From a virus (lineage: Duplodnaviria > Caudoviricetes), in IMG/VR virus record IMGVR_UViG_3300021376_000006: a DNA stretch of 64,000 nt; one strand, given 5' to 3'. The notes beneath the pieces are model-generated. The model made no database searches. It was given only the letters and a program-made list of their open reading frames with translations, and was not told the DNA's origin. The translations under genes were made by a program, and so were the position numbers. Positions 114 through 33,586 of this stretch are shown piece after piece. Position 1 is the first letter of the stretch. Each line of letters opens with the position of its first letter.

Positions 114-1541
114 TCATTCGGTTTTTGTTTTAAGGCTTGCCAGCATACTTTTTAGTCGCGAGCTGTCAACTGTAGCCTGAGCTGATTTATCTAAGTCAAG
201 TCCAGGTTTGGGTCGGGCTGCGACCATGGGGCTGGTTGTTGTGGTAGATGTTTTGATTTGATCAAGTATCTGATTACTTGTACGGAAACCTTGTCCGCCA
301 TTCTCACTTTGTGCATCCGGTCCAGGATCGGTAATACGCATGGTTTCGATATTGTATTCTAAATCCACTTTCATACCTACGCCAGTACTGCTACGACTTT
401 TCATACATTGTATCTGATATCGACCACGCTCACGCATGGCTCGACTTGTAAAAATACCAAACACATTATCTGCTGTATTAATTTTACTGATACCACCTGA
501 TATATGACTGTGATCAAATTCTACTTCTTCGACTGCCGATCGATTTAATTGACTTGCTGTTACCATTAACATGCCTAGTTCTTTGGCTAAATTGCGTAGT
601 TCTTCACTGACATACTTGTCCTTTACAAACAAGTCATTGGGACTAACCTTGGCGCTTACTGGCATTAACAAGTCCAAGTAGTCAATCATAATAAAGTCTA
701 CCTGTCGACCTGTTTGAATTTGATATTCTTTAAGATAAGAACGTATATCATTGATATTGCTTTGGGCAGGTAGGCCTTTAACTTGATAAGTTCCTGCTTT
801 TTTTCCTACCATTTTTACTTTTAGTGTGGTGGTATCAATATCCTTACGAATATCTTTAGTACTCATGTTAGACAACATGGCATCAGTACGCAAGCTGGTC
901 AGTTCTTCACTCAGTTCCAGTGTAATATAAACGCCGTTCAATCCTGCTTGTAGCCAGTTTAGCGCAATGTTCATCATAACAAGCGACTTACCTGATCCTG
1001 ATCCACCGGCAAAGATGTTCAGTTCTCCTCTACTGAATCCACCATATAGCAACTTGTCAAGACTAGGCCATCCTGTGCTCACTTGCCCGCCTGAATTGAA
1101 ATATCGGTTGATACGAGTAGCCGGATCAGCAAAATAGTCTGTACCCATGTCTTTGGTCAAACTGATCTGTACAGCATCTTTTATCAGTTTTTCTACAGGA
1201 TCGAAGTCACCTCGTTCAATCATGTCCGCTGCTTTGAGAATAGCTCGCTCTAGTTCTTGCTTGCGACTAAATCCTTCAAACTCCTCTAGAAACCAATCAT
1301 AGTGTCCGTCTCTGAGATCAGGAACAGATCGTAATTCTATACCAGTTGCAGCCTGTATCTGTTCTCTAGTAGGCAGGGTTTTATGATCATCACTGTGTTT
1401 TTTTATAAACTTTGCAGCTTCCCGTAAACTTCTATCAAAATTTTCTGCATTGTAAATGTTCTGAACACGCACATAAGTTTCTGCGTCTTCCAACATCATT
1501 TCTAAAAATAATTTCTGTACTTCTGGATTATAATCTTTCAT
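114..1541 (-). CDS. Replicative DNA helicase, DnaB/T4 gp41-like
   Basis: Walker A GGSGSGKS, IDYLDLL Walker B, TASQLNR motif; start overlaps primase stop. Confidence 0.93.
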   Translation of the reverse strand: MKDYNPEVQKLFLEMMLEDAETYVRVQNIYNAENFDRSLREAAKFIKKHSDDHKTLPTREQIQAATGIELRSVPDLRDGHYDWFLEEFEGFSRKQELERAILKAADMIERGDFDPVEKLIKDAVQISLTKDMGTDYFADPATRINRYFNSGGQVSTGWPSLDKLLYGGFSRGELNIFAGGSGSGKSLVMMNIALNWLQAGLNGVYITLELSEELTSLRTDAMLSNMSTKDIRKDIDTTTLKVKMVGKKAGTYQVKGLPAQSNINDIRSYLKEYQIQTGRQVDFIMIDYLDLLMPVSAKVSPNDLFVKDKYVSEELRNLAKELGMLMVTASQLNRSAVEEVEFDHSHISGGISKINTADNVFGIFTSRAMRERGRYQIQCMKSRSSTGVGMKVDLEYNIETMRITDPGPDAQSENGGQGFRTSNQILDQIKTSTTTTSPMVAARPKPGLDLDKSAQATVDSSRLKSMLASLKTKTE

Positions 1542-2566
1542 GTTGTATATAGTTTTTTCTTTTTAAGTTGAATTTTTAACTTGCTTGTTTCTCTTGACGC
1601 TAATATGCTTTTTAACACAAACAATTTGCCGTATTGAACTACAGCGTCATTGATATCTTTACAGGTTTCCTGCCATACAGGAAAACTTACTGTCCATCCT
1701 GCCTCAATCGCACGATCTACTAACTTTCTTCCTGCACGATCTGTATCTGGCACAACTATAACTTCACGCTGTAGCCTATCTATCTGTTCAACTTGCGTAT
1801 CTGAAAATTCGGAACCATTAAGTGCCACACCATCCACGCTCATAGCGTCAAATGGACCTTCACATACTATGACAAATCGACTATCTGGCAGTTGATTATC
1901 TAAATTGAACACAAAATCTGCTGGATGACTTGACCAATATTTTGGTTTAATACCGTCAACGATAGCTCTTGCTGTATATCCTACTATACTTTGCTTGTAA
2001 TAAAACGGGATAATTATTCGTCGATGCAAATTGTATGCTTCTTCGGGTGTCCAGTAGAATTTATATTTGTCTATATCAATATTTCTACGATGTACATATT
2101 CAATTGCAGCAAGTAATTCTGCGGGCACATTATTGTAATCACCTATGCTGTAAAAATTAGCTAATTCAACTACATTCCTTGCTTGCTCAGGTAATGTTCT
2201 TGCCTCATAATGAATTTCTTCTTCTGGTACCTGCTCAAGCTCTTCAGGGGCTACAAGTTCTTTAAGTCTTACCGCCTCAATTACCAAGCGTCTTATTGTT
2301 AAATCATCAGCACCCAACCAGGCGAGTAATTTTCTAAACTTAAATGTAAGATGCCTTCCTGGCACATAACTGGCCTTGTAGCCACAGTTGAAGCAATGAT
2401 ACGACACCGCACCTGCATTAGTTTTTATGCCACCTCTACCTCGAGCATCAGACGATTCACCATTGTGCGGGCAGCATACAGCATTGAATGATATCCAGCC
2501 ATTCTGACCCGTTTTACGACGGGCAGGCAGTAGTTGCAAAACTGATTGCTGGATAGAGTCTAACAT
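1538..2566 (-). CDS. DNA primase, T4 gp61-like
   Basis: Zn ribbon (CCPH...HCFNC), TOPRIM motifs EGPFDA, PDTDRAG, KDIND. Confidence 0.9.
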   Translation of the reverse strand: MLDSIQQSVLQLLPARRKTGQNGWISFNAVCCPHNGESSDARGRGGIKTNAGAVSYHCFNCGYKASYVPGRHLTFKFRKLLAWLGADDLTIRRLVIEAVRLKELVAPEELEQVPEEEIHYEARTLPEQARNVVELANFYSIGDYNNVPAELLAAIEYVHRRNIDIDKYKFYWTPEEAYNLHRRIIIPFYYKQSIVGYTARAIVDGIKPKYWSSHPADFVFNLDNQLPDSRFVIVCEGPFDAMSVDGVALNGSEFSDTQVEQIDRLQREVIVVPDTDRAGRKLVDRAIEAGWTVSFPVWQETCKDINDAVVQYGKLFVLKSILASRETSKLKIQLKKKKLYTT

Positions 2567-2580: not shown

Positions 2581-3282
2581 TTAATTTTTAACAGCGGCCA
2601 ATCTTAATGATTGTAATACTCGAATATAAAACCAACCAATATCAAATTCAAACCACCGACGGCTTAAACGAGGACTAGCTGGATCCAAATGATGATTATT
2701 GTGTAATTCCTCGCCGCCAATTAATATACCAATGGGCACGATATTACGACTTTGGTCTCTGGTCTCACCGTTGCGATATCCCCAAAAATGTCCAATACCG
2801 TTAATTACTCCTGCTGCCCAGAAGGGTATCCAGATCATTTGTATACCCCATATTATGGCGCCCACCCAACCGAATAGTAAGATGTTGAACACAAGGAGAA
2901 TAGTAATGCCAAGTCTGGAGTGAGGCGTGTATAACTTATGCTCAATCCAATCATTAGGAGTGCCAACACCGTATGTATTAACCATGTCTTTATCTTTGCT
3001 TGCCTCATGATACAACAATGCTCCTTTAAGTAAAACATGCCAGATACCATAGTGTACTGGACTATGTGGATCTTCTGCTTGTTCGCAAAATCTATGATGC
3101 TTTCTATGAACCGCCACCCACTGTCGAGTGACCATTCCTGTAGTTAACCATAACCAAAAACGCATGGCATGACTGACCATGGGATGAAATTCCACTGCTC
3201 TATGTGCCTGACTGCGATGTAGGTATAGCGTCACACAGTCTATGGTGATGTGTGTGACTAAAAAAGTGTATAGTATGATCAT
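2581..3282 (-). CDS. Membrane fatty acid (delta-9 type) desaturase
   Basis: Three His boxes HRSQAH, HRKHH, HNNHH; hydrophobic segments; FDIGW near C-terminus. Confidence 0.9.
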   Translation of the reverse strand: MIILYTFLVTHITIDCVTLYLHRSQAHRAVEFHPMVSHAMRFWLWLTTGMVTRQWVAVHRKHHRFCEQAEDPHSPVHYGIWHVLLKGALLYHEASKDKDMVNTYGVGTPNDWIEHKLYTPHSRLGITILLVFNILLFGWVGAIIWGIQMIWIPFWAAGVINGIGHFWGYRNGETRDQSRNIVPIGILIGGEELHNNHHLDPASPRLSRRWFEFDIGWFYIRVLQSLRLAAVKN

Positions 3283-3315: not shown

Positions 3316-5700
3316 TTATCCTATATACCAATAAACCCCATCGGACCATACAGGGGCAACATTTGAGCCACCGCCACTGATTGTAGCACCAAAGTTGCCC
3401 GCGGCCGTAATGTTGCCATCTGACACAAAGGCCCTGGCTCCGGACACTGCTGTGAGGCTATCAAATGCCGCAGGAGATGTAATAGTTGTTTTTGCAAAAA
3501 CATTGCTGACAGCTCTTATATTTCCTGTGACCATAAGATTACCTGCCTGCACATTGCCAGTGTAAGTGGTCAAATAGGCAGCGGTATTTGCATTTGCTTG
3601 AGATACTATGTTATTGATATCATTTTGAAGGCTGGCAGCATTGGCATTGGCATATGTTTGATAGGCACTAAGATTAGCAGAAACAAAAGTAGCGGGTGGT
3701 AAAATTACGATGCTTCCAACCATACCGCCGTGTACGGAACATTGATACACGTAGGTGGAACCAACTAAATCAAAAGGAACTTTCCAATATAGTGTTCCAC
3801 TGACTTTTCCTTGGGCACTAGAATCTGTGCTAACAGTTCCATCTGTTGCAACATGAGTCAGACCTGTGTCGTAATTTGAACCACCAGATGATACACGAAT
3901 CATAAACGGGTGACCACTGACACTTAAAGCAAATGATATTGTTTCACCGCCGGTTACATAAATGGTTGGATTACTGCCAGAATATTGGTCAAACAGATAA
4001 CCCGAGGCACCGCTGTTTGTCACACTTAAACGTGAGACAGAAGGCAAGTACATTTGACTAGCTTGAGTGTTTGCATATGACTGATAGGCACCAAGATTTG
4101 CCTGTATAGCAACTACGTTGGCATTTGCAAAAGTTTGATATGCATTGATTGTGTTAATTGATGTTGCTTGTGATGCTGCATTGGCATTACTGAAAGTCTG
4201 GAAGGCACCAAGATTTGCCTGTATAGCAACTACATTGGCATTTGCAAAAGTTTGATATAAACCAATGTTTGCATTGATCAAATTGATACTTGTGGCCTGT
4301 GTGGCTGCATTTGCTGTGAGACTATCTAATGATTGTGCTTGCGTAGCAGCATTTGCAATTAAAGTAGTTAACGAAGTAGCTTGTACTGCGGCATTGGCAT
4401 TTGCAAAAGTTTGATAAGCACCTATATTGGCATTTATACTGTCAATTGCAGCACCTTGTGTGCCTGCGTTGGCCTGCAAGGCAGTTATGTTTGTTGACGC
4501 CGTTCCTAAATTTGCATCTATATTGATAATAGATGCTCCTTGTGCGGCAGCATTGGTGGTCAAACTGTCTAAAAACTGTGCCTGGACAGCGGCGTTACTC
4601 AATAAAGTTGTGATTGAGGTAGCCTGCGCTGCTGCATTGGCATTTGCAAAAGTTTGAAAAGCACCTATGTTTGCATTGATGCTGTCAATTGCGGTGCTTT
4701 GAGCAGCAGCGTTACTAACCAAAACTGTTAAACTAGATTCTTGACTGACTGCATTTGCAAGTAGAACGGTTAAGTTAGCAGCTTGCACTGCGGCGTTGCT
4801 TGTTAACTGTTGTAATTCTAAAGTTTGTGTTACGGCATTTCCCGACAATACATCTAACACACCTTGTTGTACGGCGGCGTTGCTCTGTAAACTAGCGATG
4901 GCCGTATTGGCCGCAGTTACATTGGCATTAACAGAAGTAATTAGACCAGCCTGTGTAGCAGCATTGGCAGTCAGTGCAGTAATTGCACCATTGGCAGCAG
5001 TTACATTTGCATTTACAAGATTTATACTTGTGGCTTGCACTCCAGCATTAGAAAATAAATTATTGATTTCGTTTGTTTGTGCAGCAGCATTGGCATTGGC
5101 ATAAGTCTGATATGCACCCAAATTGGCTTGTATGGATACTACATTTGCATTTGCATAAGTTTGATAGGCACCTAAATTGGCCTGTATGACCAAAACATTG
5201 GCGTTGGCAAAAGTTTGATATGCACCAATATTAGCATTCAAATTATTAATACTGGTTGCCTGCGTGCCTGCGTTGGCATTGCTGTACACCTGGAATGCAC
5301 CAACATTTGCACTAATTGTGTTGATGTTGGCAATCAATTGATCCAGTGTGGCAAATCCGGTATTGGCTGCAAAATTGTTTATTTGAATTTGTTGCGCTGC
5401 TGCGTTGGCTTTTAGACTGGTTATTTCAACATTGGCCGCAGTGATGTTGGCTCTTAGGCTGTCAGTTTGTACATTAGCTGCTGCAACATTGGCATTCACT
5501 GGGCTTAGATTACCCGAGTCATTAATTTGTGTAACATTGGCCAATACATGACCGCCTGCAGTAACACCATCGTGTACCCTGACAGTATCTAAATCTGTAT
5601 CAATGGTAATTTCGCCCACTAACCCAGTATAGGTAGAACTCACACTGGTATTGGCTCTTTTTAATAGTAAGTAGTTTGTTAAAGTTACATTGGCAGTCAT
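3316..5700 (-). CDS. Tail fibre / fibrous virion protein with Asn-Ala-rich repeats
   Basis: Mtd-N-like start (LLKRA...GEITIDTDLDTVRVHDGVTAGG), many GAYQT(F/Y)ANAN repeats, C-terminal YQCSVHGGM domain. Confidence 0.75.
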   Translation of the reverse strand: MTANVTLTNYLLLKRANTSVSSTYTGLVGEITIDTDLDTVRVHDGVTAGGHVLANVTQINDSGNLSPVNANVAAANVQTDSLRANITAANVEITSLKANAAAQQIQINNFAANTGFATLDQLIANINTISANVGAFQVYSNANAGTQATSINNLNANIGAYQTFANANVLVIQANLGAYQTYANANVVSIQANLGAYQTYANANAAAQTNEINNLFSNAGVQATSINLVNANVTAANGAITALTANAATQAGLITSVNANVTAANTAIASLQSNAAVQQGVLDVLSGNAVTQTLELQQLTSNAAVQAANLTVLLANAVSQESSLTVLVSNAAAQSTAIDSINANIGAFQTFANANAAAQATSITTLLSNAAVQAQFLDSLTTNAAAQGASIINIDANLGTASTNITALQANAGTQGAAIDSINANIGAYQTFANANAAVQATSLTTLIANAATQAQSLDSLTANAATQATSINLINANIGLYQTFANANVVAIQANLGAFQTFSNANAASQATSINTINAYQTFANANVVAIQANLGAYQSYANTQASQMYLPSVSRLSVTNSGASGYLFDQYSGSNPTIYVTGGETISFALSVSGHPFMIRVSSGGSNYDTGLTHVATDGTVSTDSSAQGKVSGTLYWKVPFDLVGSTYVYQCSVHGGMVGSIVILPPATFVSANLSAYQTYANANAASLQNDINNIVSQANANTAAYLTTYTGNVQAGNLMVTGNIRAVSNVFAKTTITSPAAFDSLTAVSGARAFVSDGNITAAGNFGATISGGGSNVAPVWSDGVYWYIG
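4086..4257. repeat. Near-identical 55-bp direct repeat (4086-4140 and 4203-4257) in fibre gene
   Basis: AGGCACCAAGATTTGCCTGTATAGCAACTAC(G/A)TTGGCATTTGCAAAAGTTTGATA, one mismatch; more degenerate copies extend to ~5230. Confidence 0.9.
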
Positions 5701-6208: not shown

Positions 6209-6586
6209 ATGGACGAACCCAACTACCAGCAGTTATTAAAAAAATATCCCTTTTTGACTTACCTTGTATATGGTGGCAATGAATACATAGGCGTTATTCA
6301 AAACCTAGATGAAGTAATTACTACAATTTATGACTACGGTGCGCTTAGAACGCTAGAACAAAAACAACAATTTCTAGAGCTGGCAGAGACTTGGTGGTGG
6401 GAAAGCAACAGGCTGATACCTATCAATGTGTTCTTGAAAACAGAATGGACTCCGTTTAGAACTGTGGTTAAAACAATGAATTCAAAAGATGTGGAAATCA
6501 AGTTCGGCCCGCAAGTGAGCCTAAAAGAAATTGCCGCCAAACGTAGCAAGCGAAGAAGTATTACTCTAGTTAGAAAATTAGGTTAG
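6209..6586 (+). CDS. Hypothetical phage protein
   Basis: Clean ORF divergent from the structural genes; TATAAATA at 6166-6173 upstream. Confidence 0.7.
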   Translation: MDEPNYQQLLKKYPFLTYLVYGGNEYIGVIQNLDEVITTIYDYGALRTLEQKQQFLELAETWWWESNRLIPINVFLKTEWTPFRTVVKTMNSKDVEIKFGPQVSLKEIAAKRSKRRSITLVRKLG

Positions 6587-7209
6587 CTATAACTGTAACT
6601 GATTTGCTCGCATATTAAGTTCATATTAACCGCAACCAGATGTGCATATCCAACTGAATGCGACTTCTTGAAGTAGTAGCTGTCATCTGCAGGACGCTTC
6701 CAGACTGACTCTGCAACTTCCTGCCATGTTCTACCAATCAAATGACGCTTGGCTGGACGTATCACTGCAAGAAACATAGCCAATCTAGGAATACTATCAA
6801 CGGGCTCGGGCATTTTTGCTAGTGTATCGTAATGTGAACCAATGTGTATTAGTTGACTACAAAAATCTCTGGCCTGTAATAAATCCCACAAGGGCTCTTG
6901 ATTCATTAACTCCTGTAAATGCTGATCATTTTTAATTTGTTGATATAACCCAACATTAAGAATATCTAATTTGATGTACCCTCGTTGTTCGGCAGCTTCA
7001 TAGTCTAAACTTGCGCGACCAGTGTAAGGATCTACAGGAATATCTGTGAAGTAAACACCTGTATTGTGTTTTGTGATTTTTTCGTCGCGTACAATACTTG
7101 CGGCTATGTGTTTCAAGCAAGACAATGCTTGATCTCTATCAGCTACATCAATGTCGATATCACTGGAAAATTTCATAGTCCAGCTTCCTTTAGCACATGT
7201 CTGCACCAT
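6583..7209 (-). CDS. Miniature DnaE (Pol III alpha)-like protein, palm/fingers core only
   Basis: SDIDIDV, H.TGVYF, GYIKLDILNV, FKKSHSVGYA correspond to DnaE PDIDxD, H..G, KxDxLGL, FNKSHxxxYA. Confidence 0.75.
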   Translation of the reverse strand: MVQTCAKGSWTMKFSSDIDIDVADRDQALSCLKHIAASIVRDEKITKHNTGVYFTDIPVDPYTGRASLDYEAAEQRGYIKLDILNVGLYQQIKNDQHLQELMNQEPLWDLLQARDFCSQLIHIGSHYDTLAKMPEPVDSIPRLAMFLAVIRPAKRHLIGRTWQEVAESVWKRPADDSYYFKKSHSVGYAHLVAVNMNLICEQISYSYS

Positions 7210-7871
7210 TCTACATCGGCCACGTAATCCTTGAACTTACGATTCCAGTAATCAGGATCAATCCAAGGAAGAACAATGGCCAAATGCTCTGTAGAAATAG
7301 ACTCAAGAAACTCAATGCCACTATTGCAGTTATATACAAGCCAAGGGCTAACGCGACCAGTGGTAATATGATGACAAATCCTATTATGATTGCCGTACTT
7401 AAAATAATGGCTGTAACTAGCAAGCCCACTATCTCCATTGGAGTATTCCTCCATTTGTTTGAGGCCGCGTTCGAGTGCGTCCTGCACTGCTTCTCGTCTA
7501 ACATATTCATGTAACCATTCTTCGTAAAATTTGTCTTTACACCAATGGTCTAATTTTTTGTTGTTCTTCAGTAACCAAGCTGTATAGCTGTTGCTGTTAA
7601 CACAGCGAATAGCAACCAAGTGTCTGCCGAACCTAACAAAAGCATTGTAATACGGACTTGTAACAAAGTCTGTATAACTCTTAAGCTGTGCGCTACCTTG
7701 TGTGGTTTCATAAAATTGTAGATACGCTCTAAGTCCAAACTGAACTCCTGTTTCGGTTTCCTGTTGCCAACGACGTTTTTCTGTACAAAGATGTGCAGCA
7801 AGAGTACTTTCTTTGCTGTAACTTTTATTACAGTATTTACACTTATAGCTCGGCTTTGATTCTTCTGTCAT
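7173..7871 (-). CDS. Hypothetical protein with N-terminal C2H2-like zinc finger
   Basis: YKCKYCNKSYSKESTLAAHLC; start refined to MTEES. Confidence 0.7.
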   Translation of the reverse strand: MTEESKPSYKCKYCNKSYSKESTLAAHLCTEKRRWQQETETGVQFGLRAYLQFYETTQGSAQLKSYTDFVTSPYYNAFVRFGRHLVAIRCVNSNSYTAWLLKNNKKLDHWCKDKFYEEWLHEYVRREAVQDALERGLKQMEEYSNGDSGLASYSHYFKYGNHNRICHHITTGRVSPWLVYNCNSGIEFLESISTEHLAIVLPWIDPDYWNRKFKDYVADVEWCRHVLKEAGL

Positions 7872-8307
7872 CCCACCCGTGTTCCTTGGCAAGTTGTTTA
7901 AGATCTGCTGTGTCGTTGATTTTGGCAAGTAATTCTAATTCATCTTCTTTGCGCTCAGGGAATATTTGTCGCAGAAACTTTACCGCTTTATTATTCGAAC
8001 CTTCACGCTTTTTTTGTTTGATCCAATCGTGCCTAAATGTACCCATGCCAGGACTGACTGTGGTAGCCAACAACCATTGTAATTCAGGATGTCGACTCAA
8101 TTCAAAGAAGTGTTTGTTAAAATTTTCGTTGCAGGCAAGTAAATAATACTGTTGTAGTTCTGTACTGCCCTGTACACTGCTGCCCCATCTAATCATTAGG
8201 TAATTGCTAAATTTCTTTCGTTCTTCATCAGTGAGATCACGATAAAAGTTTCGATCTTTAGTATCAAAGGCTCGCATTTCGTTGGCAATGTTTAATTTGT
8301 CTGTCAT
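7843..8307 (-). CDS. Clamp loader small subunit, T4 gp62-like
   Basis: KKFSNYLMIRW, N..FF.L..HPELQW.L, final helical segment typical of gp62-like proteins. Confidence 0.65.
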   Translation of the reverse strand: MTDKLNIANEMRAFDTKDRNFYRDLTDEERKKFSNYLMIRWGSSVQGSTELQQYYLLACNENFNKHFFELSRHPELQWLLATTVSPGMGTFRHDWIKQKKREGSNNKAVKFLRQIFPERKEDELELLAKINDTADLKQLAKEHGWDDRRIKAEL

Positions 8308-9084: not shown

Positions 9085-9203
9085 TGTTGTAAAAGTAAAA
9101 TTGCTGCTTTTTCTTGCCACCAACGAGCAATATCACGCATGTCAGTGCGATCTATCTGCACCCATTTTATGCCATTGCCTCGATCTTCAATTTGAAATAT
9201 CAT
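9081..9203 (-). CDS. 40-aa ORF (MIFQIEDRGN...LLLQQ), not in the supplied track
   Basis: Fills the gap exactly with ATGA overlaps at both ends. Confidence 0.5.
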   Translation of the reverse strand: MIFQIEDRGNGIKWVQIDRTDMRDIARWWQEKAAILLLQQ

Positions 9204-10654
9204 TGCCATTCTGCCTTTTCTACAGTGAAAGGATAATTAGCCTCTTTATAAAAAGTTTTGCGTTTTGTTAAATGTCGTTTTGCGAACTTACAGGTGGAGG
9301 TGATGTCCCAGATTTGAACAAAGTCCTTATCTTCTGCTCGACGTATGCCCCGCCCAATGCTTTGTATAACTCTAATAAAAGACTTCCCAGGCTCAATAAG
9401 AACAAGATTAAAAATACGGGGAATATTAATACCAACTGCTGCGACGCCGTAAGTAGCGATGATGATTTTGTTTGTTGCCTCTGCCACTTCGTCATAGTGC
9501 TCTTTGCGCTCCCCGGCTTTAGTCGCCCCAGAAACAAACACACTGCCTGGTAGTCGTTTGGCTAATGCCCGTCCGGCGCTGATACGATCTACCAATATAA
9601 GTGTGTTGCCCGAATCAACTATAGTACTTATCAAACGACCAATATAGTCAAGTCTTTCAGCAGTTTCTATTAGATATTTTAGTTCGCTTTGATAGTTGTT
9701 ATATTCTTTGTGGTCCACTAACTGTACCACATTGACATGACACTGAGCCAAGTGTCCGGCTTCTTGTAGTTCGCTGGCGCTTAGTTGTCCTACTACAGGA
9801 CCCAGCATGCAGTTGATGCTTTGTCTTGCGTAATCTTCTTTGGGTATGGTACCAGTCAAGCCCCAACGTATAGGAACCTGTGCAAACGGTCCGCTCAGTA
9901 GTGCTTTTAATGCATCGGCTTTGGCCTGATGTACCTCGTCTACTATAACTGCTACTACACCCTCCAAGAACTCGCCTATAGTGATATCAGCCTCGGCGTT
10001 ATTGGTCGTCTTTAATAAATTGTTTAAGCTTTGCCAAGTACATATAGTATGTGTTCTATTGTATTCTTTTCTATCTCCAAAATACACACCGGTATCTAAT
10101 TCAAGATTAACAAAATCATCTTCTGTCTGTGTCACTAAACTTTTGTTAGGCACAATAACTATTGTACGCCCATACTGGCTCACAGAATCTGCCAGTGCTG
10201 CTGTGATGATAGTTTTACCGGCACCGGTGGCTACTTCCTGCACACACTGTGGATTGGCCAAAAATCTATTGATAATTTCTGGTTGATAGTCTCGTAGTAC
10301 TATAGGTTGGCCAGCCTTTGGATGATTTTGGGGCCACTGTTTGTGTTGATAAGTGTTTTCATCTACCGGAACAAATTCAAACGTGGTGCGATACTGTCTT
10401 GTATCCTCTACCTCAACATCGTAGCCTTGTTCATCAAGATAGGGCAGGATCTCTGGCAACAAGTTGATGTAAGTGGTGCCGCCAAGATTGAAGAAAGGAA
10501 CCTTGCCATCCCAGCGTCCAAGTTTTACACTGGGTTGATAACGAGCGCCCGGTATTTCATATTTGTATCGTTTTACTAAGGCTGTCCTTGTGTTAAGTTC
10601 AAGGCCTTCAATTTTTACATTGACTTCGTCTTTGATTAATAATCGAGCCTGCAT
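9200..10654 (-). CDS. uvsW: SF2 DNA helicase, UvsW-like
   Basis: LRDYQ Q-motif, ATGAGKT, VDEVH, GLTGT, QSIGRGIR. Confidence 0.9.
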   Translation of the reverse strand: MQARLLIKDEVNVKIEGLELNTRTALVKRYKYEIPGARYQPSVKLGRWDGKVPFFNLGGTTYINLLPEILPYLDEQGYDVEVEDTRQYRTTFEFVPVDENTYQHKQWPQNHPKAGQPIVLRDYQPEIINRFLANPQCVQEVATGAGKTIITAALADSVSQYGRTIVIVPNKSLVTQTEDDFVNLELDTGVYFGDRKEYNRTHTICTWQSLNNLLKTTNNAEADITIGEFLEGVVAVIVDEVHQAKADALKALLSGPFAQVPIRWGLTGTIPKEDYARQSINCMLGPVVGQLSASELQEAGHLAQCHVNVVQLVDHKEYNNYQSELKYLIETAERLDYIGRLISTIVDSGNTLILVDRISAGRALAKRLPGSVFVSGATKAGERKEHYDEVAEATNKIIIATYGVAAVGINIPRIFNLVLIEPGKSFIRVIQSIGRGIRRAEDKDFVQIWDITSTCKFAKRHLTKRKTFYKEANYPFTVEKAEWQ

Positions 10655-17290: not shown

Positions 17291-17319
17291 AGTATATGCA
17301 AAATATAGTTATGTGTCAA
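17291..17319 (-). promoter_or_regulatory. Sigma70 promoter of the ParB-like/HNH/GGCT operon
   Basis: TTGACA-17-TATACT; GGAG RBS. Confidence 0.85.
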
Positions 17320-18110
17320 CCCGTGTATTTGCCAAAAGTTTGTTGCAATTTTGTTAAGTCTGCACAGGTATACTTTTGATAGCTATGCGCTAGATGTTCA
17401 GGAAAAGGTATTATCTGAATCAGTGCTCCATATTGATTGGCTTTGTCTCGCGCAATGTCGGCGAATGATTGTGCTTGTCCTGTACCAATGTTCCATACAC
17501 CGTTTTCATCAATTTTGCGCCGGACAAATTCGTATTGAACATCTAACAAACGCTCAACAGGAACAAAGTCTCTTTGAAAATGGTCGCTGCCTTCGAATAT
17601 TTTTATAATACCAGTGGATTGAGCTTGTACAGCAAACTGATAGTGCGGGCTGGCTTGATTACCTTTATGGGTTTCGTTCGCACCATATACATTAAAGTAT
17701 CTAAATCCCTGGCACCGAACATGCGTCGGATGGTGTTCGATGTAGTGTTCGAATAGATATTTACTCCATGCGTATGGACTTCTAGGATCAACTGGTGCGG
17801 TCTCTGTAAAGTCTCGGCCCATGCCATACACGCTAGCCGAGCTGCTCCATTGAAGATTGACATCATGTCGTCTGCACTCCTCATATAGCCAAACGCTAAA
17901 GTCATAATTCTGACGCATCACTTTGTCAACATCACGCTCAGTGGTACTGCTTATGGCTCCAAAATGAAAAACCCAATCCAGGCCTTCGATACGCGGTAAT
18001 AGATTTTCGTCCCATTCGTATGTGACAATTTCATGGCCGCCAATTTTATGCCAACGACTTACAGCGTGGCTACCAATAAAGCCTCTACTTCCGGTTATTA
18101 ATATTTTCAA
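17316..18110 (-). CDS. hldD: ADP-L-glycero-D-manno-heptose 6-epimerase
   Basis: GSRGFIG, FHFGAISSTTERD, SSSASVYG, YAWSK, FRYFNVYG, KYTCADLTKL. Confidence 0.85.
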   Translation of the reverse strand: MKILITGSRGFIGSHAVSRWHKIGGHEIVTYEWDENLLPRIEGLDWVFHFGAISSTTERDVDKVMRQNYDFSVWLYEECRRHDVNLQWSSSASVYGMGRDFTETAPVDPRSPYAWSKYLFEHYIEHHPTHVRCQGFRYFNVYGANETHKGNQASPHYQFAVQAQSTGIIKIFEGSDHFQRDFVPVERLLDVQYEFVRRKIDENGVWNIGTGQAQSFADIARDKANQYGALIQIIPFPEHLAHSYQKYTCADLTKLQQTFGKYTG

Positions 18111-18504
18111 TTATTTTACTCGTTGAATAATTGGGTACTAGATCGTAATATTTAATACTGTCGCAGTATTCAGCACCGGTAATTTTTTTACCACGATAGT
18201 CTGAACCTTTGACCATTAAACTAGGTTTATACAATTTACAAATATGTGCCAGTTCTTCCTGTGTATCAAAAATCCACACAGCATCTACACATTTAAGATT
18301 GTCCAATGCAAACTTGCGGTCTTCCTGTTTATTAACAGGACGCTGTTCACCTTTTAACTCTCTCACCTCACGATCTGAATCTATTGCAACCAACAAATAG
18401 GTTCCTTGACTTTTTGCAAAGTTGAGCATTTCAATGTGCCCACGATGCAGGATGTCAAAGGTCCCGTTAACTATTACTCTTCTGGCTATCCCCGGGCTGT
18501 ACAC
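18085..18504 (-). CDS. Heptose-1-phosphate adenylyltransferase-like (RfaE domain II / HldC)
   Basis: NGTFDILHRGH, KGEQRP, VKGSDY, STSKII. Confidence 0.85.
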   Translation of the reverse strand: MYSPGIARRVIVNGTFDILHRGHIEMLNFAKSQGTYLLVAIDSDREVRELKGEQRPVNKQEDRKFALDNLKCVDAVWIFDTQEELAHICKLYKPSLMVKGSDYRGKKITGAEYCDSIKYYDLVPNYSTSKIIENINNRK

Positions 18505-18835
18505 GATAATTGTCCTCTACGGAATCTGGTGTGGAAACTTCTACTACTGTGCCTTGTTCTAGGCAAATTAATTGATGTGGCATACAAGGTGGATTGTGCC
18601 AAGTATCGCCCACATTCAATTCTTGTTCAATCTGTGCAGCAGTATTTGTATCAATATATTTTACAATGAATTTTCCAGATTGTATGTACCAAGTTTCTTC
18701 TTTTTCTCTATGGAAGTGCATACTAAATCTGGCACCGATATTGAAGTGCATCATCTTACCACAGTATCTATCGTTGGTGGCCCAGATTTCTTCAAACCCC
18801 CAACCTTTTTCAACTCTTCCTGATAATCTTGTCAT
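18467..18835 (-). CDS. Cupin, sugar isomerase-like
   Basis: KGWGFE, SMHFH..K.ETWY, EVSTPD...DNYRV. Confidence 0.8.
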   Translation of the reverse strand: MTRLSGRVEKGWGFEEIWATNDRYCGKMMHFNIGARFSMHFHREKEETWYIQSGKFIVKYIDTNTAAQIEQELNVGDTWHNPPCMPHQLICLEQGTVVEVSTPDSVEDNYRVQPGDSQKSNS

Positions 18836-19605
18836 GCTTGCTCAATCTCCGCTAAGGTGGGACTGTATACTCCGATGTGCTGAACAGTGACACTGGCTGC
18901 ACGAGCTGCAAATTTGATTGCCACGGCGATGTCATTTGATAAAACGTAGTTGTATGCGAGAGCAGACAAAAATGTATCGCCTGCCCCGCATACATCAAAC
19001 GCCTCTACTTGTGGAGTAGAAAACCGATGTTCTTTATACTTTACGCCATCTCTACCAAGGGTAACAATAAGATCGGCAGGATATGTTCGAGCCGCTTCAT
19101 ATTCCACTTGATTAATTTTAACGAAACAACCTTGGAAGCGGGCCAGGTCGCTTTTCTTCGTATCAACAAATATTGGACCCAAATAACGCCGGCGAAGCTC
19201 TTCGACGGTTTCATACTCTACTGATCCTTTGTTATAATCACTTACTATAATACAATTATACTGGTCTAAGTTGTTGTAGTCAATTTTTACGGCACGACTA
19301 GGTGAATCTTGATCTATTCTAACTAGATGTTGCTTGGTCCTTGAATCAATTACTCGAGTCTTTATACATGTTTTTATGCCGTGTACAAAAGTTACTTCGC
19401 ATCCTAGTCGTTGTAAATTCTCTTTTACATTAGCGGCCATGCCAGGTCTAATTTCTGTATGTGTGTAGTTGACTACCGGCACAGGAGCCTCAGGACTAAT
19501 TCTTGTAACTGTACCATATTGATATTGATCAATACCGTTGTCACCTACAAGTAATATTCGTACCTTAGAAGTATTGGCAGTTTGATCTTGGAAAATAACA
19601 CTCAT
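18832..19605 (-). CDS. PfkB kinase, heptose-7-phosphate kinase-like (RfaE domain I / HldA)
   Basis: RISPEAPVPV, GMAANV, SDYNKG, DVCGAGDTF. Confidence 0.88.
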   Translation of the reverse strand: MSVIFQDQTANTSKVRILLVGDNGIDQYQYGTVTRISPEAPVPVVNYTHTEIRPGMAANVKENLQRLGCEVTFVHGIKTCIKTRVIDSRTKQHLVRIDQDSPSRAVKIDYNNLDQYNCIIVSDYNKGSVEYETVEELRRRYLGPIFVDTKKSDLARFQGCFVKINQVEYEAARTYPADLIVTLGRDGVKYKEHRFSTPQVEAFDVCGAGDTFLSALAYNYVLSNDIAVAIKFAARAASVTVQHIGVYSPTLAEIEQA

Positions 19606-20314
19606 TGTTTGCTAGTGGTTTAATCTTAATTGTTTCTAATACCGAGCTTTTGCCTAGACCCATTGCTAAACTGTATGCAGCACTCTGGTTGCCCATGAAC
19701 AAATCTGCACCAGCGATCACATCCGCCAGCTCTTTGAAATCTTGAACACAGTAATATTGTACACGAAAGCCAGTGCTTTTTTCAAAATCTTCATGCTCGT
19801 CTTGAGTGCCAACAAACACACCTGTCTGAGATATGTTTGCTTGCTCTAGCAGGCCTTGCCAGGTACCTGTACCTTCAGGACATCTGTATCTAAATGTTCT
19901 GTTTATGACCACAGGTGCGACTTGCTTTGCATCAGCCTCTAGCCATGTTTCATTATACACTTCTGGTTCAAATGGTAGGTTAAATGTACGATGATACGCT
20001 TCAACATAGTTACCTTCAAAACCTCTAAATAATACGCCACGAAATCGATCTAGATCAACATCGTGGTCGCCTAACCAAACTGTCACTTGGTCAATATAGC
20101 TCTGCCTGGACAGCAAAGGTCGTAACAAATCAAAATCAGCAATCTTGAATCTGCCCTGATGTGCGGAATCTACTTCGTTGGGTTTATATCCGTATCGTGC
20201 TACACACTTTTCAATGTTTTCAAGATGAATAGCAAATGTGCCACCACCCATTTTTTTAACTACAGATAGACTGTAAATTAAATCGCCAAATGTTCCTGAG
20301 TGTCTATATATCAT
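19565..20314 (-). CDS. GT9-like glycosyltransferase
   Basis: HSGTFGDLIYSL; ADLFMGNQS. Confidence 0.6.
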   Translation of the reverse strand: MIYRHSGTFGDLIYSLSVVKKMGGGTFAIHLENIEKCVARYGYKPNEVDSAHQGRFKIADFDLLRPLLSRQSYIDQVTVWLGDHDVDLDRFRGVLFRGFEGNYVEAYHRTFNLPFEPEVYNETWLEADAKQVAPVVINRTFRYRCPEGTGTWQGLLEQANISQTGVFVGTQDEHEDFEKSTGFRVQYYCVQDFKELADVIAGADLFMGNQSAAYSLAMGLGKSSVLETIKIKPLANNECYFPRSNCQYF

Positions 20315-21198
20315 AGTATTTCTGAAATATTGTTTGCGATACGTTCGGCATCAAAACTGTCTTTGCAACGATAATCACCGTGTTTGCAAATTACTTGCCT
20401 TACTGGTCGAGCCTGATGGTCATTACATCCCACACAATCAACTGCACTCATAATTGCGGTTGTGTTATGTCCAAACATTTCTCTTCTATACGGCAGTATT
20501 CTTTCTGGCAGCAGGTGTGTCTGTAGTGCAATTATATGCGTCTTGCTGGCACCTGCTACATGAAATGGCCCGCTGTCTATGCCAACAAAACATCTAGCTC
20601 GATCCATCACGAGTTTTTGTTGTTGTATGTTCAATTGTTCTCTTGCATCCACAAACAATGGATGATCAACATACCCATCACTTGCGCTGCCAACACAAAC
20701 TATTTTGAAATCCGTACGTTCAGTAAACAGGTGTTCAAAAACAGCAAACCAAGTTTCCCAAGCCATGTTTTTTAATGGCCAATGCCATTGTCGAATATGC
20801 ACCACAATGAAACTGTCAAGCTCATTGTCCTGGCAAAATAAGCTTACCGCATCTTTATCAAACTCATTAGCAAACAGTTCTACCGATTTGTTATCCACAT
20901 CTGATGTGCCAAAAGCGCGATAGAAATAACTGTCCACATAATGATTAAGAGGACTATGTTCGTAGGCATCATCCAGGTTAATATATAAATCATAATTTTT
21001 AGCCTCGGGCATAGCGTCAGTATGATATATCGCCCTGACGTGTGGATTGTTGGCATAAACATTGGGAAATTCTGTCGCTACATCAATGTAGCAGTTGTAC
21101 TTGTTTTTTAATTCTCTCACAACACCGGTGCTCATAATCACATCACCGAGTGCTGCTCTGCGTCTAACTAATATTTGTACAGGTCGTTCTATTTTCAT
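20311..21198 (-). CDS. GT9 heptosyltransferase-like
   Basis: ILVRRRAALGDVIMST; FVGIDSGPFHVAGA. Confidence 0.8.
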   Translation of the reverse strand: MKIERPVQILVRRRAALGDVIMSTGVVRELKNKYNCYIDVATEFPNVYANNPHVRAIYHTDAMPEAKNYDLYINLDDAYEHSPLNHYVDSYFYRAFGTSDVDNKSVELFANEFDKDAVSLFCQDNELDSFIVVHIRQWHWPLKNMAWETWFAVFEHLFTERTDFKIVCVGSASDGYVDHPLFVDAREQLNIQQQKLVMDRARCFVGIDSGPFHVAGASKTHIIALQTHLLPERILPYRREMFGHNTTAIMSAVDCVGCNDHQARPVRQVICKHGDYRCKDSFDAERIANNISEIL

Positions 21199-22234
21199 TT
21201 AAAAAGTCTCGAATGTATTCAGTAAATTGCAAATCTGGTCTTTGTTGTTGTAATAACTGTTTATTGTGTTTTATAGACGGAACACTTTTTTCGTATGCTA
21301 GTTTAATTGTTTTTGCGGACTGCGTCAAGAATTCAAGCAAACTACGTCTAGCACACACAAGTCTTGACCCTGGTTCTTCAATCTTGTCATAGCTGGTGTC
21401 AATAATGTCGTCAAAGGTGCTGTACCCTTGCGATCTTAAATATGCCAAACTGTTATGATATCCAATGTAAAAAAACAGTTGTTGATAATTGATGGCATTA
21501 AAAATTTTTTCACTGAAGAATATTCCATTATCAAAAAAAGTATCTGTAACAATTCCCAAACAACTATCAAGATAAAAATTTACGTTGGTCTGTGTAAACT
21601 CCACTGTGTTGTCTATAGCTGGTAGAGGAATTTGATTGGCAACGGAATGACATTCTTGATCTATATGAGCTGCCCAAATTGATTCAATGCGATGTTGAAT
21701 CCAGAGTCCAGGTATGTCCGAGTGTACACATTTGTAATTTACTAAATTATTTGATAGTAAATTATTGTGTATTAACCCAGCAAGAACGTATCTTCGAGTG
21801 TACCAATCTTTGCTGCTAGCCCAATAAAATTTGTACGGTCTTGCTCGATAGCAATCGTTGTCCCATACCCTTTGTTGATTTTCTTTTCGTTGATACCAAT
21901 GCTGATTGCTTACTAAGTCAAATAACCCAATTGATTTATAACCAAATTTTGTGTTGGGTTTTTGATAGTCTGCATCTTGTGTAAGTTTCCCTGTAAAAAC
22001 AATTACTGGATTATCAATCGATCGACAATATTCATCTAGCGGCAGTATCCAAAAATCTCTTTCCTGTATGCATTGAAATGCTCCCAACAGTATTATTAAC
22101 GTATTTTTGTCTTTGACTGCAATTTGTTTAACACAATCAACTATTGTTTCTAAATGTGAAGGAAACAAATTACAAACTACGTAATTGTCTAAGGGTATGT
22201 CTAGATGGATATCGTATTCGCCAGTATCATACAT
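21164..22234 (-). CDS. Putative glycosyltransferase ('(S/T)EK' family), paralog 1
   Basis: IVTDT..FFSEKIFNAI..LFFYIG..LRSQGYSTFDDIIDTSYD, shared with two ORFs at 46-48 kb. Confidence 0.45.
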   Translation of the reverse strand: MYDTGEYDIHLDIPLDNYVVCNLFPSHLETIVDCVKQIAVKDKNTLIILLGAFQCIQERDFWILPLDEYCRSIDNPVIVFTGKLTQDADYQKPNTKFGYKSIGLFDLVSNQHWYQRKENQQRVWDNDCYRARPYKFYWASSKDWYTRRYVLAGLIHNNLLSNNLVNYKCVHSDIPGLWIQHRIESIWAAHIDQECHSVANQIPLPAIDNTVEFTQTNVNFYLDSCLGIVTDTFFDNGIFFSEKIFNAINYQQLFFYIGYHNSLAYLRSQGYSTFDDIIDTSYDKIEEPGSRLVCARRSLLEFLTQSAKTIKLAYEKSVPSIKHNKQLLQQQRPDLQFTEYIRDFLNENRTTCTNIS

Positions 22235-22586
22235 TTGTTTTTACTTCTCTTACTGGGTCATTTAATTTTTCTGCCACTGTATTTTTTAATTGTACTCGAA
22301 AGTTATTGTAATCTCTAATTTCCAAAGCACGACGTCCAACTTCGGTTAAATCTGTACCATCAATTCGACATTTTTTGAAATCATCTTCTAGGCTCCAAAT
22401 TTTATCATGTAAAATTTTAAATGCCTGTAGTTCATGCCAAATCAAGGATTTATCTATTCCCAACATTTGTTGTTCATAAAAGTCCAATTCAGCCTGATTG
22501 GCTCCACCAGTGCGACTGTGTTTGACTTGTGCAATAGTGTATCTATCAACCAATTCCATTACAGGAAACTTAAACTCCAACTTCAA
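22227..22586 (-). CDS. Hypothetical protein (DUF6165-like)
   Basis: ELVDRYTIAQVK...N..RVQLKN pattern. Confidence 0.5.
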   Translation of the reverse strand: MKLEFKFPVMELVDRYTIAQVKHSRTGGANQAELDFYEQQMLGIDKSLIWHELQAFKILHDKIWSLEDDFKKCRIDGTDLTEVGRRALEIRDYNNFRVQLKNTVAEKLNDPVREVKTNV

Positions 22587-23781
22587 CCTCCGGAAAATAT
22601 CGCATGAAACGATCGTTGCTGTTAGTCCTGTGTTTTAATATTCGACCTTTGATTTCTTTAAAAAAGTTCCAGGCCAACGGAACAAATAAAATTTTATCAT
22701 CGTCTTTGTAGAGAGACAAATGACCAATAGACACCACAGGAATATCTTGCCCTGGACTGTATGTGTCTTGCTTGGTTGGATTGTCATCGATGATGTAATC
22801 TAGACGTACATCAGCAAAATTAAGCAAGGTCATTCCTTTGGCTGCGGCGCCATATCCCACAATGTGATATCCTTGTTCTCTAAACAAATTGATTCTTGAA
22901 CTAAATTCACTAGAAATTTTTCTCGCTCGAGCAGCCCATGCACGATATGTGTCATTGTTTAACAAGTCTGCTTCCATGTTAATTAAATTAGCTACATGTT
23001 CTCTGCGAACACGGTTAGGTGTAAGTACAAACACATAACTGGTTCCATGAATAGGCGTTTTAACCACATCTATCAATTCCCAACCAGCTCGTCGACACAA
23101 TTGATTCATTGAATTAATGTTGTAAAAATTCACATGTTCGTGATAGATAGTGTCAAATTCACCGTTTCTCACCATGTTGGCCTGACTAGTTTGAACAAAA
23201 AACATCCCATTGGGTTTCATTAACGGTTGCAATAATTTAAGATAGGCAAGTGGATCTGGGTTGTGTGCAAAACTATTTTGCGCCACTACTATATCAAATT
23301 GCCTGTCATCCAGATTCCTTATAGATTGTTCATCCCAAAATCCACATACTACCCGATGACCTTTTGCTGTGCTGGTTGCGTGAATATTTTTTGCTGGGTC
23401 TACTCCATAAGTGCGAAATCCCAACTTTTCAAAATAATCTAACTGACTGCCATCATTGCAGCCAATATCCAACACACTACCAAATTGTATATCACTGTAT
23501 TCTCTTACCCATTTGGCGAACCACCACATGTAATCTAAATAAGTCTGACTGGTTCCACTTACATATGCATAGTCTTGATAGATTACTGCTGGATCAACCA
23601 CATGAGTTAATTGCAAATGAAAACAGTCAACACATTGATTTACTGCCAATGGATACCGTTGATTTTTACCAGGTTCATGTAAAAAATTGTTTGCTAGAGG
23701 TTGATGGCCTAAATTAATAGCAGGTAATAAGTTGTTTCCACCGCAGGCCAAACATGCTTTTAATTCTGTACAATTTTCCAT
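22570..23781 (-). CDS. SAM-dependent NDP-sugar C-methyltransferase-like
   Basis: Zn site CLACG...CVDC, DIGCNDG, YHEH, GYGAAAKG, LAWNF. Confidence 0.85.
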   Translation of the reverse strand: MENCTELKACLACGGNNLLPAINLGHQPLANNFLHEPGKNQRYPLAVNQCVDCFHLQLTHVVDPAVIYQDYAYVSGTSQTYLDYMWWFAKWVREYSDIQFGSVLDIGCNDGSQLDYFEKLGFRTYGVDPAKNIHATSTAKGHRVVCGFWDEQSIRNLDDRQFDIVVAQNSFAHNPDPLAYLKLLQPLMKPNGMFFVQTSQANMVRNGEFDTIYHEHVNFYNINSMNQLCRRAGWELIDVVKTPIHGTSYVFVLTPNRVRREHVANLINMEADLLNNDTYRAWAARARKISSEFSSRINLFREQGYHIVGYGAAAKGMTLLNFADVRLDYIIDDNPTKQDTYSPGQDIPVVSIGHLSLYKDDDKILFVPLAWNFFKEIKGRILKHRTNSNDRFMRYFPEVEVGV

Positions 23782-23782
23782 G

Positions 23783-24493
23783 TTAATTTTTAATAGGTAC
23801 TCCGTTTGGTGCAATAAATCCTTCGACTCCTAGCACTGGTAATTCTTGTACAAGTTCTTGTGGAAGAAATTTATACAGCACATGCTCAATATCTGCGTAA
23901 CCACCTTGACTGACTCGCTGACCTATATAAGCCAAACTGTCATTGTACACTTGAATCACTCGTTCAGTTTGTTCAACTGGCCACGACCAAAGTCTGGCCA
24001 TGTATTGTAATTCAATGCCGGTTACATCAAACGGGAATTGACTTCGATGTTTGGACCCAATAACAATTTTATCGGCGAATTGTTCATAAACATCTAAATT
24101 AAATTCGTCATTCAAGATGTAACGGCCTGACATTTTGTGGATTCGATCGTAACCTACGAAATCACCGTCTTTGCTACACATAGCAAGTGTACGGCCAAAG
24201 CACATGATTTCTGTAGAATTCTTAACCACATCCCAATTGTCGCTTTGGTAAATTGCTTGTACGTCTGCGTCTTGACTGAAATCCAACAAAAGATCTGAAT
24301 TGACTTCTAAAGTTTCGCTTTGTCCCGGCGTAAGTGCTGTACCGGCACACTCCATGACTACTATTTTGGCACCAGGAACACGCATGCGAATACTTTGTAA
24401 AGTGATTACAGTTTGAGTCAGTCGCTCTACAGCATTATAAATGCCAAACTTGCTATTAATGGCCGATGTTACTACAAATAAATGTCTAATCAT
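23783..24493 (-). CDS. Hypothetical protein in glycan cluster
   Basis: Intact, tightly packed ORF; K.SGRY motif. Confidence 0.6.
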   Translation of the reverse strand: MIRHLFVVTSAINSKFGIYNAVERLTQTVITLQSIRMRVPGAKIVVMECAGTALTPGQSETLEVNSDLLLDFSQDADVQAIYQSDNWDVVKNSTEIMCFGRTLAMCSKDGDFVGYDRIHKMSGRYILNDEFNLDVYEQFADKIVIGSKHRSQFPFDVTGIELQYMARLWSWPVEQTERVIQVYNDSLAYIGQRVSQGGYADIEHVLYKFLPQELVQELPVLGVEGFIAPNGVPIKN

Positions 24494-25524
24494 TTACGTA
24501 ACCATCTTTCATTGGCCAATGTCCAATCTACAACTTTTTTAATACGTTCGCTTAATTTGATTTTTGGTTCCCAACCTAGTGACTTTAGTAAGCCGCCATC
24601 TAATGCATAACGCATGTCATGTCCAGGTCGACTGGTATGGAAGTCGGTCATTTCGTATTTCAGTTCTTTACCTACTGCAACAGCGATCATTTGTGCTAGG
24701 GTAAGGTTATCAATTTCTTCAGTACCAACGAGATTAAACTTGGGGCAGTGTGCATGGCCGTAGTCCCCTGTATGAACATAATCCTTGAGTGAGAGTATGA
24801 ACATAAGACCCTCAGCAACATCTTGGGCATGTATGTACATTCGACTACCTGCTGTTGTTCTTGTTGGATCAGCATGAATGATGACTGTCTCCCCATCTCT
24901 CACCTTTTGAATAGTTGCTGGAATAAATTTTTCTGGATGCTGTCGTTCGCCAAACACATTCATGGTGTGTGTAACAACGATAGGCAACTTGTAGGTGTTT
25001 TCGTAGGCAACACAAAACTCCTCCGCAGCCGCCTTACTCGCGGAGTAGGGATTTGTGCTGTTGTAACGATCATATTCCTTATAGGCGACACCAGGTGGCG
25101 CAATCCCAAATATCTCGTCGGTGGAAAAATAAACAAATCGTTCCAGATTTGGTAAGTTCTTCCTTGCATAATCTAACATGTTAACTGTGCCGACTACATT
25201 GTCTTGCACAAACTCCATTGGATAGGCAATACTACGATCCACATGACTGCCTGCTGCAAGATGTAAAACAATATCAATTGGTCCAATATCCTGAACTATT
25301 TGACTATTGATTTCGGCTTTAAGATCATGGAATACGATACGCAGTCTCTGACTTACTTTTTTTGGGTCATGATTCTGTAGCACATCATGAAGTCTATTTA
25401 GATTACCAGAAATATCTAATCTGTCTAGACAAACAACTTTCCAATTTGTGATTTGTAAAATTAAATCAATTACATGGTGTGCAATGAATCCAGCACCGCC
25501 GGTGATCAATACTGTTTTTGACAT
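24490..25524 (-). CDS. rfbB: dTDP-glucose 4,6-dehydratase-like
   Basis: GGAGFIA, HLAAGSHVDRSI, STDE, YSASK, RPGHDMRY. Confidence 0.88.
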   Translation of the reverse strand: MSKTVLITGGAGFIAHHVIDLILQITNWKVVCLDRLDISGNLNRLHDVLQNHDPKKVSQRLRIVFHDLKAEINSQIVQDIGPIDIVLHLAAGSHVDRSIAYPMEFVQDNVVGTVNMLDYARKNLPNLERFVYFSTDEIFGIAPPGVAYKEYDRYNSTNPYSASKAAAEEFCVAYENTYKLPIVVTHTMNVFGERQHPEKFIPATIQKVRDGETVIIHADPTRTTAGSRMYIHAQDVAEGLMFILSLKDYVHTGDYGHAHCPKFNLVGTEEIDNLTLAQMIAVAVGKELKYEMTDFHTSRPGHDMRYALDGGLLKSLGWEPKIKLSERIKKVVDWTLANERWLRK

Positions 25525-25555
25525 GAATCCTCATTTTTTATTGAATATAAACTAT

Positions 25556-25705
25556 TTATTCGCCTGATTTTGGGGCGATAAATTGCTTGATATGACTCAT
25601 TGCTTTACGAGCAGTATCAAAAACATATTCTCTAGTTTCATCTTCAAGATTAACAGTTACAATAAAACCATTTGCTACTTTACGAATTTCAATTGATTCA
25701 AACAT
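25556..25705 (-). CDS. 49-aa protein (MFESIEIRKVANGF...), not in the supplied track
   Basis: GGAG RBS and its own sigma70 promoter. Confidence 0.65.
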   Translation of the reverse strand: MFESIEIRKVANGFIVTVNLEDETREYVFDTARKAMSHIKQFIAPKSGE

Positions 25706-25731
25706 AAACACTCCAGAGTGGTTGAAATATT

Positions 25732-25760
25732 ATTATATCACAGTTTTTTTGTAAAGTCAA
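25732..25760 (-). promoter_or_regulatory. Sigma70 promoter
   Basis: TTGACT-17-TATAAT. Confidence 0.8.
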
Positions 25761-25762
25761 AC

Positions 25763-26644: not shown

Positions 26645-26645
26645 A

Positions 26646-27500: not shown

Positions 27501-27523
27501 AATGATACTTATTTTAAAAATTG

Positions 27524-27553: not shown

Positions 27554-27577
27554 AACATTCAACGATAAGGTATTCAA

Positions 27578-29550: not shown

Positions 29551-29558
29551 GGAAAAAT

Positions 29559-33584: not shown

Positions 33585-33586
33585 TT

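Follow-up and report, generated by a model that had tools for sequence, protein, structure and literature searches.

A highly reduced DnaE-like polymerase module of an uncultured jumbo phage, very probably one subunit of a two-gene minimal DNA polymerase III alpha

How far can a family C DNA polymerase be cut down, and is what remains still able to act by itself? The question is raised by an open reading frame of 208 codons in the window analyzed here, by which we mean the whole 64-kb stretch of DNA, which reads as a portion of a large phage genome. The alpha subunit (DnaE) of Escherichia coli DNA polymerase III comprises about 1160 amino acids. The original prediction described the phage product as the stand-alone core of a miniature C-family (DnaE-like) polymerase, encoded last in an operon with UvsW, a gp62-like subunit and a zinc-finger protein. 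In this work we have analyzed the reading frame, its relatives and its genomic setting. The reading frame encodes a genuine family C polymerase module in highly reduced form. Very probably its product is the C-terminal partner in the minimal DNA polymerase III alpha that group 2.2 jumbo phages encode in two genes, and for this enzyme an accessory role is likely. The genes of the window on which the argument draws are as follows.

6583..7176, minus strand: very probably the C-terminal subunit of a split minimal Pol III alpha (Mg2+-binding palm strands and reduced fingers), on the evidence of phrog_11778, PDB profile matches, AF2 model and VIA-align
7173..7871, minus strand: protein of 232 aa with an N-terminal C2H2 zinc finger and an all-helical domain (zf-C2H2 E 5.5e-4, below the Pfam cut-off; phrog_11058 E 1e-57)
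6209..6586, plus strand: convergent 125-aa gene (phrog_11637 E 1.7e-32)
9200..10654, minus strand: helicase of the UvsW type, farther upstream in this run of minus-strand genes (ResIII 5e-19; Helicase_C and UvsW_N at the Pfam cut-off; PF21241)
114..1541: DnaB-like helicase
1538..2566: primase
42383..43450: UvsX
45127..46134: gp32-type SSB
49632..51197: large terminase

The reading frame 6583..7209 is intact and free of frameshift remnants, as had been predicted, and it lies on the minus strand, which the prediction had left unstated. Its length of 208 aa holds good as the longest reading. The real start is most likely the methionine M12 at 7176, giving 6583..7176 and a protein of 197 aa, because the ATG of this codon overlaps the TGA stop of the preceding C2H2 gene (ATGA) and because homologues and gene callers alike point to a 197-aa product starting with MKFSSDIDID. 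A length of 190-197 aa and a start just a few residues ahead of the DxDxD motif are also found in the identical database protein and in almost all of the top database matches. Residue numbers below refer to the 197-aa reading; adding 11 converts them to the 208-aa numbering. At the other end of the gene, the last 4 bases overlap the 3' end of the convergent gene 6209..6586, and an opposite-strand gene is found at the same spot 3' of the polymerase half in three relatives: the Sinorhizobium phage Phosso, the PA5oct-like phage PAC2 and the IMG/VR genome G001. The gene order of PAC2 matches that of the window (UvsW ... C2H2 - polymerase half - convergent ORF ... primase - DnaB). The proposed operon stands as far as UvsW and the C2H2 protein are concerned, both being encoded upstream on the same strand, but the gp62-like assignment of the ORF 7843..8307 is unsupported, the sole match of this ORF being phrog_11758, a family of unknown function.

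The relationship to DnaE becomes visible at the level of profiles. A Pfam search with the polymerase half gave no match, DnaE models included, and no PHP, thumb, clamp-binding, HhH or OB domain was matched either; a single-sequence search of PDB also found nothing, so that a profile was needed. Among the phage families, phrog_11778 ('DNA polymerase') matches the protein with an E value of 7.8e-64 over positions 5-194 of the 197 in the profile, and phrog_405, the family of full-length DnaE, matches it weakly. When a profile built of 83 sequences (A1) was compared with PDB, nine distinct sequences were recovered, all of them Pol III alpha, the best with an E value of 6.5e-6. Residues 539-641 of E. 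coli alpha were matched by profile positions 54-139, and residues 739-771 by positions 150-181.

The predicted structure leads to the same family. The AF2 model of the 197-aa protein has a pLDDT of 96.8 and a pTM of 0.89. In a Foldseek search with this model ranks 1-9, hence nine of the top ten, were all DnaE or PolC (probability 0.93-0.99, E about 5e-3). VIA-align superimposed the model on eleven C-family polymerases with Z scores of 6.2-9.4, covering 183-193 of the 197 residues. The highest scores came from Thermus aquaticus DnaE (3e0d, Z 9.4, with 191 of 197 residues aligned to residues 458-841) and PolC (3f2b, Z 9.2), and the E. coli enzyme (2hqa) gave Z 7.0 over residues 397-784; the next unrelated fold reached only Z 3.4.

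Set against DnaE (E. coli 2HNH/2HQA, T. aquaticus 2HPI/3E0D) and PolC (3F2B), the protein has in common with them the Pol-beta-like palm strands, the equivalents of D401, D403, K553 and D555, the RP motif and the fingers motif FNKSH. Its equivalent in E. coli alpha is the stretch 397-784, from which two large segments have been lost. One is the thumb, 58 residues between D10 and K69 standing where E. coli has 147 between D405 and K553; the other comprises about 90 residues of the fingers between E. coli positions 641 and 739. The PHP domain (E. coli 1-270) and indeed everything before residue 397 are lacking, as is all that follows E. coli residue 784 or so, that is the rest of the fingers and the clamp-binding, HhH, OB and tau-binding parts. 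The portion of the palm with the GRGS motif, which in DnaE and PolC belongs to the same polypeptide, is likewise absent.

The motifs follow one another in the order known from DnaE: DIDIDV at residues 6-11, KLDILNV at 69-75 and FKKSHSVGYA at 169-178 (17-22, 80-86 and 180-189 in the 208-aa reading). Their codons and E. coli equivalents are given below; the register of K69/D71 and of FKKSH was read by counting along the printed HMM alignment.

7147..7161, minus strand: encodes D6-I-D8-I-D10, the catalytic DxDxD strand, which corresponds to D401/D403/D405 of E. coli alpha (invariant in 83/83; register from the fused protein P0152, see below)
6964..6972, minus strand: encodes K69-L-D71, which corresponds to K553/D555 of E. 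coli, with D71 as the third catalytic aspartate (invariant in 83/83; HMM alignment to 2hnh, residues 553-555)
6658..6672, minus strand: encodes the fingers motif F169-K-K-S-H173, which corresponds to F756-N-K758-S-H760 of E. coli (second domain of the HMM alignment, chain residues 739-771)

Conservation was scored in 83 full-length cluster representatives with 30-61% identity to the query. D6, D8, D10, K69, D71 and P141 are invariant in all 83; H37, R140 and H173 are each kept in 82, and K170 in 78. The E. coli counterpart of H173 is H760, which we take to be the sugar-selecting residue. The family is large, with at least 7,954 proteins of about 190-200 aa at E <= 0.001 in a metagenomic database clustered at 90%, and 423 cluster representatives at 50% identity. 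For pairs of close relatives with measurable (unsaturated) dS, dN/dS was 0.05-0.14; none of the 13 genes in this comparison has an internal stop, two of them holding only their own terminal stop codon. The polymerase half is thus under strong purifying selection, and the invariance of the residues together with the low dN/dS means that the motifs are real and selected and not due to chance. In these respects the original prediction has been borne out: the order and register of the palm aspartates and fingers motif agree with the HMM alignment and with P0152, the structural match to the DnaE palm was obtained (Foldseek ranks 1-9; VIA-align Z 9.4), the checks of aspartate conservation (D6, D8, D10 and D71 in 83/83) and of dN/dS across homologues both came out in its favor, and profile, fold and residue conservation all support a miniature C-family module.

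The other part of the prediction, that this module is a core standing alone, fails on what is missing at its N-terminus. To our knowledge, the GRGS segment, which holds the triphosphate, precedes the DxD strand in all C-family polymerases. The window protein starts 5 residues before the DxD strand, and a reading frame that begins exactly there is therefore without the GRGS triphosphate-binding part (about residues 323-392 of E. coli alpha). No homologue of this part was found in the 64-kb window with the N-terminal part of P0152 as the query, nor does a G[RK]GS motif occur there in any frame. In four relatives it is encoded by a separate gene of about 170 aa (N-half), located 43 to 237 kb away from the gene for the polymerase half (C-half).

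G001 (IMG/VR relative): N-half at 331.4 kb, C-half at 94.2 kb
PAC2 (PA5oct-like phage): N-half at 173 kb, C-half at 129 kb
Phosso (Sinorhizobium phage): N-half at 97 kb, C-half at 321 kb
G003: N-half at 102 kb, C-half at about 17 kb

The genome G001 (338.5 kb, 97% complete) encodes a C-half 69% identical to the window protein and an N-half of 171 aa, ending ...GVGRGSSVASYVLYLIGVHKINSLYYDLDITEFLK. Across three genomes PF07733 scored above its cut-off only on N-halves, and the N-half profile aligns to residues 323-392 of E. coli alpha, R362-G363-S364 included. Among cultured phages the N-half was found in 103 records, a few of which are full-length DnaE from Clostridium-type phages, and the C-half in 96, the counts per host genus being nearly equal; 95 of the 96 records match over at least 80% of the query, with 39-47% identity among the matches listed. 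The cultured phage protein closest to the window C-half has 47% identity, and the best IMG/VR relative 82%. By analogy with the four relatives, a partner N-half is predicted for the phage of the window as well, presumably encoded at a similarly distant place in its genome.

Natural fusions show how the two halves correspond to one enzyme. They are rare, forming three clusters of 375-376 aa (P0152, P0392 and P0393) as against thousands of split forms. In P0152 (375 aa) residues 190-372 match the window protein and the N-terminal part contains VGRGSSSASL; it aligns to residues 319-417 of E. coli alpha in one stretch running through GRGS, ERFL and DFDVD. From this alignment it follows that D6, D8 and D10 are equivalent to D401, D403 and D405, and that the split falls in the loop equivalent to E. 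coli N393-P400. In the fusions the N-half stands directly before the C-half, with a linker of only about 12 residues, and these proteins would offer the simplest construct for biochemistry.

A C-family polymerase made from two distant genes is known also from cyanobacteria, where DnaE-n and DnaE-c carry a split intein. The cyanobacterial halves are joined by protein trans-splicing into the full-length enzyme, and their split site lies elsewhere. The phage N-half ends with ...EFLK and the C-half starts with MKFSSD, both being collinear with DnaE and devoid of any intein-sized extra segment. An intein-type split has therefore been rejected on the grounds of this collinearity and of the short linker in the fusions.

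Are the remaining domains of DnaE encoded elsewhere, as in a conventional split enzyme? In the complete relatives G001, Phosso and PAC2 neither PHP (PF02811) nor HHH_6 (PF14579) was matched, the sole match of PF17657 (fingers) was a weak one on the C-half itself, and no longer, PHP-less gene of DnaE type was detected with the PDIDLD pattern, PF07733 or the A1 profile. Since PHP and HhH are absent from complete relatives, the enzyme is not a conventional split DnaE; of the DnaE domains that might have been encoded elsewhere, the GRGS palm piece is the only one found. All three genomes do encode a family B polymerase (PF00136), which was not seen among the large ORFs scanned in the window. Judged by its gene content, the enzyme would be a minimal two-piece palm-plus-fingers polymerase beside a PolB replicase.

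An enzyme of this kind has already been described from sequence analysis, and the gene of the window is a member of that known family. Iyer, Anantharaman, Krishnan, Burroughs and Aravind (2021, Viruses 13:63; PMC7824862) reported a split minimal Pol III alpha in group 2.2 jumbo phages, in which a 'C-terminal Mg2+- and DNA-template-binding subdomain' has its N-terminal NTP-binding partner on a distant gene, the other Pol III domains are absent and a family B polymerase coexists. They suggested that it cooperates with the family B enzyme, in the synthesis of one strand or in repair, and put it forward as a model for the ancestral module of Pol III (PMC7824862). The window C-half resembles the published C unit in being a stand-alone polypeptide of about 190-200 aa that has the DxD strand at its start and the third aspartate and fingers motifs farther along, and the group 2.2 homologues (Atu_ph07, PA5oct-like and RaK2/121Q-like phages) share 39-47% identity with it and have the same neighbouring genes. 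It differs from the published copies in its origin, an uncultured jumbo phage from a freshwater metagenome (337,915 bp in the longest contig) with no close cultured match. Some copies are labelled 'DnaE-like DNA polymerase III alpha' in GenBank records; the enzyme goes unmentioned in a 2026 jumbo-phage review, and we found no biochemical or genetic data on any member of the family in the literature. To the published description the present analysis adds the AF2 model with its Z scores, the counts of invariant residues and the dN/dS values, as well as the rare natural fusions of N- and C-half and the near-universal C2H2 gene upstream. The family is very common in metagenomes, and the window contributes one more member without changing the picture. 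What deserves attention is the system as such: a C-family polymerase cut to about 370 residues and distributed over two genes, beside a family B replicase of archaeo-eukaryotic type.

The two proteins might work together in the following way. The C-half would bring the metal-binding D6, D8 and D71 on the Pol-beta-like palm sheet, along with cut-down fingers whose RP and FKKSH motifs would face the incoming nucleotide and the template as they do in DnaE. The separate protein of about 170 aa, from the distant gene, would supply the GRGS triphosphate-binding part of the palm, and by docking the two would rebuild one active site. Formation of this heterodimer, its catalytic activity, the use of DNA over another substrate and its biological role are what we infer for the enzyme. 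Because PHP, thumb, clamp-binding, HhH and OB parts are all lacking and a T4-like family B replicase coexists with it, the enzyme would most likely not be the main replicase but an accessory templated DNA polymerase, used in repair, in the filling of gaps or in a special replication step. The lack of thumb, clamp-binding and HhH/OB parts at the same time counts against the proposed enzyme, as it puts the hold on primer-template DNA in question.

That same lack opens the way to another reading of the two subunits, as a nucleotidyltransferase of Pol-beta fold for which templated DNA synthesis is not the reaction: an untemplated tailing enzyme, a primer-making RNA polymerase or a synthase of nucleotide signals in conflict with the host. 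The Pol-beta fold serves many non-replicative transferases, and every DnaE domain that grips DNA or the clamp is gone. We nevertheless consider such an activity quite unlikely, given that the RP and FKKSH fingers motifs peculiar to DnaE have been kept, with H173 near-invariant, and that the gene sits within a replication and recombination module, with UvsW, primase, DnaB, gp32 and UvsX in the window.

An enzyme consisting of the C-half alone, whether a self-sufficient miniature polymerase or a primer-synthesis enzyme, is still less probable, to a degree that we would call very slight. An intact ORF, a confident fold in isolation (pLDDT 96.8) and the retention of all three aspartates are what one would expect of it, and they are set against the missing GRGS nucleotide-binding segment, the presence of that segment as a separate gene in four relatives and in the same cultured jumbo-phage genera, and its position directly ahead of the C-half in the fusions. 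An inactive domesticated fragment, either a decoy or inhibitor of host replisome parts or the decaying remnant of a full-length phage dnaE, is suggested by the extreme reduction of the protein and is hardly credible, since the catalytic residues are invariant at 30-61% identity, dN/dS is as low as stated above, thousands of proteins keep the length of about 190-200 aa with no internal stop in the genes compared, and the clamp-, tau- and epsilon-binding regions that a decoy would need are absent. We therefore retain the two-subunit, DnaE-derived templated polymerase as the preferred explanation.

Within that explanation the C2H2 protein encoded immediately upstream calls for comment. In 79 of 80 IMG/VR loci its gene precedes that of the C-half, and the two frequently overlap by ATGA as they do in the window. 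Among cultured phages, 89 records contain the protein; where positions were compared, its distance from the C-half was no more than about 1.1 kb. The AF2 model (pLDDT 89.6) consists of the zinc finger plus a helical domain. Comparison of this fold with 48,161 PDB representatives gave a best Z of 4.8 and no nameable match, and a protein-atlas search returned only the viral clusters of the protein itself. When the N-half, the C-half and the C2H2 protein of G001 were predicted as three chains with the last as the scored partner, the score was 0.00, 'no answer', which speaks neither for nor against binding. A functional link between the C2H2 protein and the polymerase half is a reasonable guess, given that their adjacency is conserved and coupled; it stays a guess because synteny in these phages extends over the entire replication module. 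A minimal Pol III working as a three-part machine, in which the C2H2/helical protein would provide the grip on DNA given by the missing thumb, HhH and OB parts, is improbable on present evidence, if not negligibly so; were it true, no smaller templated holoenzyme of a C-family polymerase would be known, and it would serve as a working model for the ancestral bacterial replicase.

Several other genes of the window were noted in passing. Between the primase and the tail-fibre-like genes lies an ORF of 233 aa (2581..3282, minus strand) with the histidine boxes HRSQAH, HRKHHRF and HNNHH, by which it looks like a candidate membrane fatty-acid desaturase; if so, it would be an unusual auxiliary gene within a replication module. 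The adjoining 794-aa protein (3316..5700, minus strand) is made up mostly of degenerate 'N-A-N-x / A-A-Q-x-T-S-I' repeats followed by a distinct C-terminal beta region and is presumably a fibre. Farther on, the replication genes are separated from uvsX by a long run of genes for sugars and modification (about 17300..44500), which contains four nucleotide-sugar epimerase/dehydratase-like ORFs (phrog_540), an aminotransferase, several methyltransferases, radical-SAM proteins and a heptose-phosphate adenylyltransferase-like ORF.
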